Position numbers and translations under genes: made by a program. DNA of 64,000 nucleotides. Source: a virus. Every line of letters starts with the position of its first letter. The first letter of the stretch is position 1. The stretch covers positions 64,001 through 128,000 of IMG/VR virus record IMGVR_UViG_3300049855_000474; one strand, 5' to 3'. Shown here piece by piece: positions 45,455 to 46,558 of this stretch. The notes under the pieces were generated by a model. The model did no database searches. It saw only the letters and a list, made by a program, of their open reading frames with translations, and was not told where the DNA came from.

Positions 45455-45958
45455 ATGACTAAAAGCAAAAAGTCGATTAAGAAAACTCTAAATCGACCGA
45501 AACGTGTTTTGGGTCTTGACCCCGGTTAAATTTGCACCGTGAACTTTGCATTTAGTTTCTTAGTAGACGGCACACTAGAGGAAACTGGTTGGTTAAAGCC
45601 TCAACCGAATGTCACAGATGACGCTGCTTTCCTTAATAACATCATAGAACTAATTCTTAGACTAAAGCCAGATGCCATAATAGCAGAACGCTATATGTTT
45701 CGTGGTATACAGAGCATACAAACTGAGCTAATTAGCCAAATGCTGGGACGCATAGCCATTATCACCAGGTATTATCTAGGTCAAGAATTGTATCAGATTA
45801 CAGCGTCGCAATGGAAAAACTTCTATAAAGTCAAGAAGCTAAAGAACGGTGTATACGACCTGTTCCCAGAAGACACAGAGAGATTTGACCTAATCCACCA
45901 AGTGGACGCTGCCTGTATCGCTAAATACGGACAAGAGCGTTGGTGTTTACTAAAATGA
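45455..45958 (+). pseudogene. ruvC: RuvC-like Holliday junction resolvase interrupted by an in-frame TAA (split, recoded or pseudogene)
   Basis: GGAGG RBS, ATG 45455, MTKSKK...RVLGLDPG-stop(45527-45529)-IC-TVNFAFS...PDAIIAERY...ITASQWK...HQVDAACIA, all in one frame. Confidence 0.75.
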
Positions 45959-46242
45959 CAGATTTCAACAAAGAATATCCAGCCTGGTCAGTAAATAAAC
46001 AAGAAGCCAAGAAAATTGGGGATCGTTTAGGTGTGGACTGGACAAGATTCCCTATCGAAGAGTTTCAAAAAGGGATTGAAATTGAGTTCGAACACGTGAC
46101 CGACATCGTGGAAGCTGCTCGGATTGCTATTATGCACCTAGTAGAATCTAAAACTTACTACAGGGACTTGGAGAGTGTTGAAAATAAAAAGGTCTCCGAG
46201 CACAGAAAAGTTCTCCTTGCCTTTATTAGGCAAGATCGATAG
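45940..46242 (+). CDS. DUF5661-like protein
   Basis: EFQKGIEIEFEH...ARIAIMHLVE...YYRDL; likely start ATG 45955. Confidence 0.65.
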   Translation: MVFTKMTDFNKEYPAWSVNKQEAKKIGDRLGVDWTRFPIEEFQKGIEIEFEHVTDIVEAARIAIMHLVESKTYYRDLESVENKKVSEHRKVLLAFIRQDR

Positions 46243-46526
46243 TTAAGCTCACCTACCATGTGTAGGTAGAGTAACGGGGTTGTTAGGCAACCCCAGCCTT
46301 TTCACAGCAAGCTAGGCAATAGTGCTGACCTGACGGGTCCTTGCTGTAAAACCGACGTTGAAAAGCGTCCGTTACGGAAACACTCAGCGCCCCGGCAAGT
46401 CTGGTTCAAAGAGTGAGACTCTAATGTCTAGGAGGGAATCATATGGAACTATGTAGTCTAGAGGCATGCAACCCCGAGCCGGCAGGTAAGCAGCAAAGTC
46501 GAGCCTAATATTCCCTGAAAACTTAC
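46243..46526 (+). ncRNA. Candidate large structured RNA, family unassigned
   Basis: At least seven stems, a GAAA tetraloop and G-U pairs favouring the plus strand; ends at a terminator. Confidence 0.55.
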
Positions 46527-46551
46527 AAAGCCCACCAAAAAGGTGGGCTTT
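46527..46551. terminator. Bidirectional terminator
   Basis: aaagcccacc-aaaaa-ggtgggcttt between convergent units. Confidence 0.8.
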
Positions 46552-46558
46552 CCTAATT

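Follow-up and report, generated by a model that had tools for sequence, protein, structure and literature searches.

What does the spacer between two convergent genes of an uncultivated phage encode, and does it have anything to do with an interrupted gene nearby? The stretch of DNA analysed here (the window) comprises 64,000 nucleotides, bases 64001-128000 of the 153-kb IMG/VR virus record IMGVR_UViG_3300049855_000474, and the region in question, window positions 46243-46551, lies between a DUF5661 gene on the + strand and a convergent gene for a 324-aa protein on the - strand. An earlier note on this DNA had described the region as an unassigned RNA of about 300 nt with several stems and possible pseudoknots, and had speculated that it is a trans-acting ribozyme or a guide for an insert in ruvC. 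Our analysis examined whether a conserved RNA exists at this locus, how it is built, and which of the possible functions its conservation supports.

CheckV rates the records G000, G001 and G002, of 153, 133 and 68 kb, as 36%, 34% and 17% complete, which points to genomes of about 400 kb in this uncultivated clade; we regard the phage as very large on the basis of the 153-kb record and its rating of about 36%. The gene for the terminase large subunit lies about 4 kb downstream of the RNA region, and its product is only about 30% identical to the terminases of jumbo phages. The 324-aa gene adjoins the RNA in every contig that extends far enough, and the gene layout around the RNA is the same in the relatives. 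No homologue of the 324-aa protein matched a Pfam family above threshold, the only signal being that of a weak treble-clef zinc finger at about residues 175-205; the protein also has invariant Cys/His clusters and an HTH-looking segment at about residues 115-140, and its AlphaFold2 (AF2) model, with a pLDDT of 50, was too poor for a fold search. In one relative (L007:3979-4497) the DUF5661 gene is called at 42 aa only, next to a spacer of about 390 nt, and this upstream gene may therefore be in decay there while the RNA is retained.

Starting from homologues of the 324-aa protein and of RuvC, we reached 11 more contigs in which the gene order is preserved, giving eight lineages in all. Alignable spacers of 245-390 nt occupy the equivalent place in all 11 relatives, and a conserved RNA domain of about 145 nt, corresponding to window positions 46299-46440, is common to the 12 members. 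A covariance model of this domain (R1; 145 positions and 30 pairs) was built from nine training sequences, which it scores at 113-139 bits; three contigs outside the model obtained 128.5, 109 and 52.5 bits, the last of these being a reduced variant, L079. Seven helices are described here, of which six (P1, P1b, P2, P3, P3a and P4) were modelled and counted, and P1a was assessed by eye and in single-sequence folds, outside the counted model. In the 12-member alignment, 94.2% of the cells are standard pairs, a percentage that is somewhat inflated by the fitting of this alignment to the covariance model, and compensatory changes are found in 19 of the 30 pairs. Controls with slid partners were 28-42% paired with one to five pairs changed on both sides, and none of 500 shuffles matched the observed paired percentage or covariation score. 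An independent MAFFT alignment, evaluated on the local stems listed in the earlier note, gave 89% pairing and 17 compensatory pairs. The 309-nt region has a minimum free energy of -103.1 kcal/mol, against -88.3 +/- 5.1 kcal/mol for its shuffles (z = -2.9).

About 30 cells of the alignment are G.U pairs that would become A.C mismatches if read on the opposite strand, and in the relatives the T-tail of the terminator, as read from their sequences, is at least as strong in the + orientation as in the other; for these reasons we assign the RNA to the + strand. The core is non-coding. An explanation of its conservation by coding could be ruled out, given the stops in all six frames of the window and likewise in most members, the absence of any frame open family-wide, and indels that are mostly of 1-2 nt. 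The RNA is single-copy in three phage records. We conclude that the region holds an evolutionarily conserved, covarying folded RNA that belongs to no Rfam family, and the description of it as an unassigned ncRNA was correct. The features of the locus are collected in Table 1.

Table 1. Features of the ruvC-DUF5661 locus and of its RNA, in window coordinates; pairing and compensatory changes refer to the alignment of the RNA with its relatives.
Feature	Position	Strand	Support or remark
ruvC	45455-45958		Directly upstream of DUF5661 gene
DUF5661 gene	45940-46242	+	PF18905, E = 2.6e-14; own stop codon at 46240-42
Variable 5' hairpin, GGGGUUG/CAACCCC	46276-46294	+	92% paired, 2 compensatory pairs; peripheral to core
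Pyrimidine tract CUUUUC	46298-46303	+	Directly 5' of P1
P1 three-way junction	46304-46347	+	P1 closes P1a and P1b
P1	46304-11/46340-47	+	98% paired, 7/8 pairs compensatory
P1a	46315-18/46323-26	+	Varies: GGCA/UGCU, AGCU/AGCU, UUACUUA/UAAGUAA
P1b	46327-31/46335-39	+	100% paired; conserved YGACG segment at tip
P2 hairpin	46354-59/46364-69	+	94-100% paired, 3/5 pairs compensatory
J2/3 junction	46370-46380	+	Invariant columns AC...GAA; ACCCGAA in 7/12 members
P3	46381-85/46411-15	+	80-98% paired, 3/4 pairs compensatory; encloses P3a and conserved internal loops
P3a	46392-95/46401-04	+	88% paired, 2 compensatory pairs
P4 hairpin, AGAC/GUCU	46416-19/46426-29	+	Stacked on P3, abuts SD
Shine-Dalgarno (SD) region, AGGAGGG	46430-46436	+	UCURGGAGG invariant in 12/12 members
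Micro-ORF, 21 codons + TAA (MELCSLEACNPEPAGKQQSRA)	46443-46508	+	Conserved SD/ATG/ORF layout
C-rich anti-SD-like motif, AUUCCCU	46510-46516	+	3' of micro-ORF stop
Intrinsic terminator, 10-bp stem and U-rich tail	46527-46558	+	Stem 46527-51; shared with convergent gene
Convergent Cys-rich gene, 324 aa	46559-47533	-	Constant neighbour of RNA

The local stems of the earlier note stood up well to comparison with the relatives, and its long-range pairings, pseudoknots and closing pair did not. Its P1, P2 and P3 stems are conserved helices of the family, with the qualification that the loop of P2, GAAA in the window, varies in the relatives. The 5' hairpin is well paired where it occurs, but it is missing in L003 and L006, and L081 has no space for it, since the core begins there at the upstream stop codon. 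The stem 46251-56/46262-67 is real in the window but is not conserved, being common to L008 only. Five pairings had to be rejected, as only 62-72% of their cells pair on the alignment and compensatory changes are few. They are the stem 46271-77/46369-75, the proposed closing pair (46243-50/46501-08) and three loop-to-distal pairings, CTAGGCA/TGTCTAG, GTGCTGA/TCAGCGC and GAGACT/AGTCT, for which the figures are 65-72% and 0-3 compensatory pairs. These loop-to-distal pairings are in competition with the conserved local helices P1a, P1b and P4, which had been missed, as had P3a. Among the three, GTGCTGA/TCAGCGC (46322-28/46384-90; 65% paired, three two-sided changes) may be kept as a weak pseudoknot candidate.

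Within the fold, the P1b change in L011 converts ACC/GGU into AUU/AAU, and P4 covaries as GAC/GUC, GAU/AUC and GACG/CGUC, its count of 77% paired reflecting a one-column alignment shift in one subgroup. The J1/2 junction contains a conserved AAC. In the reduced variant (L079:4440-4680) the P1a/P1b junction, including the conserved GACG loop, is swapped for a plain hairpin, and 147 nt of extra spacer precede it; P2, J2/3, P3, P3a, P4 and everything downstream are retained, which indicates that the P1a/P1b junction is peripheral. Another observation concerns a short repeat: in 8 of the 12 members the sequence of the P3a 3' strand recurs in the region of the P3 5' strand (CCUG ... CAGG ... CCUG), most clearly in L002, L003, L007, L008, L081 and L079, and the window, L011 and L006 are without it. 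The repeat makes possible an alternative hairpin that is mutually exclusive with P3 and P3a and that could be a putative switch. On the 5' side, the variable hairpin is followed by AGCC and a U-tract directly before P1 (window 46276-46303; also L002, L007, L008, L009 and L010), an arrangement that resembles a leaky intrinsic terminator and may represent one, or an attenuator, between the DUF5661 gene and the RNA.

The unit located 3' of the fold, which comprises the SD, a micro-ORF, a C-rich motif and a terminator, had been overlooked. The fold ends 0-1 nt before the invariant SD, and every one of the 12 members has an ATG 7-10 nt past GGAGG that opens an ORF of 18-28 codons, the +1 and +2 frames being closed by stops in all nine members tested. 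Length differences of the micro-ORF relative to the ATG are multiples of three, unlike the 1-2-nt indels of the core. Its stop codon, TGA or TAA, stands at a homologous place, except that the window and L003 lack the homologous stop and have ORFs longer by 2 and about 7 codons; a conserved Gln codon is either CAG or CAA. In the deeper comparisons pS exceeds pN (0.72/0.19, 0.81/0.22 and 1.15/0.26, respectively for pS and pN); the closest pairs, with pN close to pS, are uninformative for selection and leave the peptide under weak constraint. Conservation of the peptide is higher in its C-terminal half (N/D, then H/P/L, and a Q-x-S/N end) than in its N-terminal half, and the exact C-terminus is not retained in the window or L003. 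We infer that the micro-ORF is translated.

Two pairings could hide the SD. In single-sequence minimum-free-energy folds of the window, L002, L010 and L006 the pyrimidine tract pairs with the flank of the SD, and its pairing with the GGGAA of the SD region may form a putative closing helix. The other partner is the C-rich motif, with UCCC found 1-19 nt past the stop in most members and, in L079, whose SD is without GGGA, replaced by CCUCC, which is complementary to GGAGG. The earlier note had listed this pairing (46433-39/46510-16) as a stem; it is a perfect 7-bp match in the window, and a comparable duplex beats shuffles in 4 of the 12 members (L002, L010, L006 and L079) but fails to do so in L003 and L081, which leaves sequestration of the SD by the motif as a possible, putative arrangement. 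It is important to note that these candidate pairings, with the 5' U-tract or with the post-stop UCCC/CCUCC, are not uniform across the members. As for transcription, P1 begins about 5-12 nt past the DUF5661 stop codon in L003, L006 and L081, which argues that the RNA is part of the operon transcript and not an independent gene, most likely co-transcribed with the DUF5661 gene.

Two observations in the window alone speak for the proposed link of a group-I-like RNA with ruvC: 7-bp loop-to-distal pairings can be drawn in the order of group I P3, P4 and P7, and a segment of the RNA has 8-11 nt of complementarity to the ruvC site, with a duplex energy of -13.6 kcal/mol. The relatives do not sustain either observation. 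The P3/P7-like pairings are among those rejected above and clash with conserved local helices, and the group I intron model RF00028 had no match at E <= 10 on the region or at E <= 5 in six homologous loci. The resemblance to a group I intron is limited to a comparable size and several hairpins; this RNA differs in having no covariance-model match, no conserved P3-P8/P7 pseudoknot and no exons, and no G-binding site was identified. The earlier note had itself found no host exons, and indeed the flanking genes are complete and separate, the DUF5661 gene ending at its own stop and the next gene being convergent. A group I intron was rejected on these three points, namely the missing long-range core pairings, the missing RF00028 match and the missing exons.

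The insert itself is 9 nt in frame (TAA ATT TGC, 45527-45535), located right after the catalytic LDPG of RuvC, and the remaining ORF looks intact. It occurs in this genome only: in the ruvC alignment the five relatives read LDPG-T/V-x-NF without it, and all five carry the RNA, which is found in all 11 relatives. The RNA and the insert are consequently independent of each other, the outcome that the earlier note had named as fatal to its ruvC link. The segment claimed to pair with the break site sits in the variable 5' hairpin and is missing in L003 and L006, and a duplex-energy scan of the window, run on both strands, put the ruvC site at rank 17, with 16 sites pairing as well or better. We therefore give almost no credence to a trans-acting, group-I-like ribozyme or guide acting on ruvC; the insert may have arisen as a recent lesion or through an error of assembly, or it may be a site of read-through or bypass.

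The explanation that we favour, with a probability of about one half, is that the RNA is a new structured translational leader, riboswitch-like or operator-like, for the micro-ORF that would end the ruvC-DUF5661 operon. This reading rests on the fusion of the fold to an invariant SD, with the start, spacing and frame kept in all eight lineages, and on invariant loop and junction nucleotides of the kind seen in ligand-binding or protein-binding RNAs. The leader and the micro-ORF would constitute the last unit of the operon; the fold would bind something, whether a metabolite, a protein or the ribosome, and the bound fold would set the accessibility of the SD, which could alternatively pair with the pyrimidine tract 5' of P1 or with the C-rich motif after the stop, and what would be regulated is the production of a small and weakly conserved peptide. 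One feature expected of a translational riboswitch was found, namely a conserved, covarying fold that resembles an aptamer and has invariant nucleotides in its junctions. The position immediately 5' of an ORF, with the SD abutting P4, agrees with a second, for which the pairings that would sequester the SD are plausible but differ among the members. The gene-association evidence usual for riboswitches is absent, since a single genomic context is known for this RNA, and a peptide of about 19 aa would be an unusual regulated product, which counts against the leader. The weak constraint on the peptide, the loss of the homologous stop in the window and L003, and the failure of the SD/anti-SD duplex to beat shuffles in L003 and L081 weigh on the same side. 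The narrower proposal that the fold of ~145 nt serves as the aptamer for a new class of riboswitch, or is another ligand-sensing or protein-sensing RNA, specific to huge phages, is an unlikely one at present; if true, it would describe a metabolite-responsive or signal-responsive translational switch of the phage, gating a peptide of about 19 residues.

The main rival to the translational leader, which we consider possible but doubtful, is a stable RNA that would act in trans or have a dual function. As with RNAIII and with sRNAs that derive from 3' UTRs, processing would release it from the 3' end of the operon, and it would act by binding a protein or an RNA of the phage or of its host; the role of the micro-ORF would then be secondary, or limited to loading ribosomes for stability. 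The place of the element at the terminator-closed 3' end of the operon agrees with such a role, and so does the distribution of constraint, given that the YGACG, AAC and ACCCGAA nucleotides of the loops and junctions are more conserved than the weakly constrained peptide. Against it, an RNA-only function would have no need of the SD, the ATG spacing and the ORF length that all 12 members retain, and the sole target complementarity proposed so far, that to ruvC, is at chance level. The better conservation of the C-terminal half of the peptide and the distance of about 19-33 nt between stop codon and terminator could also suggest a regulatory leader peptide or nascent-peptide sensor, in which translation or termination at the micro-ORF would govern the terminator next to it and thereby antisense read-through into the convergent 324-aa gene. 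We judge this improbable, because a ribosome terminating at the stop codon would not cover the terminator, the exact C-terminus has not been kept in the window or L003, no gene in the same orientation follows, and no antiterminator pairing was found in the consensus fold. An ordinary leader-peptide attenuator was likewise rejected, the next gene being convergent and the consensus fold having no antiterminator.

It could still be argued that the region has no dedicated function and consists of terminator hairpins and chance stems in the spacer of convergent genes, given that a shared terminator and a terminator-like 5' hairpin are present. This is very improbable: over eight lineages, conservation and compensatory changes exceed the slid and shuffled controls by far, loops and junctions contain invariant nucleotides, and the members reach 109-139 bits (52.5 in L079) with the covariance model, compared with at most 15 bits for 66 chance pattern matches.

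Among known systems, the translational leader can be compared with the Downstream-peptide/glutamine-II riboswitch (RF01704) and the glnA RNA, which are also conserved structured RNAs located just 5' of very short ORFs and have the ribosome-binding region beside or inside their fold. Downstream-peptide and glnA RNAs occur in cyanobacteria and in marine metagenomes rich in phages. In contrast, cmscan matched neither of them in the region, even at E <= 10, nor in the homologous loci, and RF01704 is a two-hairpin pseudoknot of about 60 nt, compared with about 145 nt, 6-7 helices and a three-way junction here. The dual-function sRNAs (S. aureus RNAIII/hld, SgrS/SgrT and SR1/SR1P) share the combination of a multi-helix RNA, a micro-ORF, predicted to be translated at this locus, and a terminator; they show no homology, and the present element differs in the fusion of its SD to the fold and in its presumed co-transcription with upstream genes. 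Structured elements at the ribosome-binding site of the next cistron in polycistronic phage mRNAs are known from the T4 gene 32 and regA operators. The phage csRNAs of Fremin et al. 2023 (PMC10690425), whose catalogue counts 10,006 candidates, some of them upstream of GP20/GP32, are, by their general description, similarly placed. The RNA reported here is much larger and more ornate than these operators and csRNAs, and the cistron it would control has just 18-28 codons.

Regarding its distribution, Rfam 15 yielded no match in the 64-kb window at the gathering threshold, and permissive scans of the region (E <= 10) and of the six homologous loci returned only sub-threshold, terminator-like matches of no relevance; ARAGORN found no tRNA or tmRNA. 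Searches of the isolated phages in INPHARED, by blastn with the region and with 5 kb around it and by tblastn with the 324-aa protein, gave no match. A pattern scan of IMG/VR DNA recovered just two contigs, both already known, and the scan of JGI metagenomes gave no strict match and 65 loose ones, all of at most 15 bits by the covariance model. In GTDB one match was obtained, in an Acidimicrobiaceae MAG, where the covariance model found nothing at E <= 1. No members were thus seen outside the phage clade in these three pattern scans, and in the searches made the RNA is confined to one small clade of uncultivated phages of very large size. It appears to be new, with no Rfam family, nothing similar in isolated phages and no member outside this clade.

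Complex RNA folds that are backed by covariation and lack a family are rare, and they have repeatedly proved to be riboswitches, ribozymes or RNP scaffolds. Our analysis removes the more spectacular reading of this locus, that of a free-standing group-I-like ribozyme repairing ruvC, and leaves in its place a fold that is ornate and well supported, with a narrow distribution. An RNA that appears to be wired to a ribosome-binding site and a mini-gene would be a case of post-transcriptional control in these phages, and its product may be a conserved phage micro-peptide.
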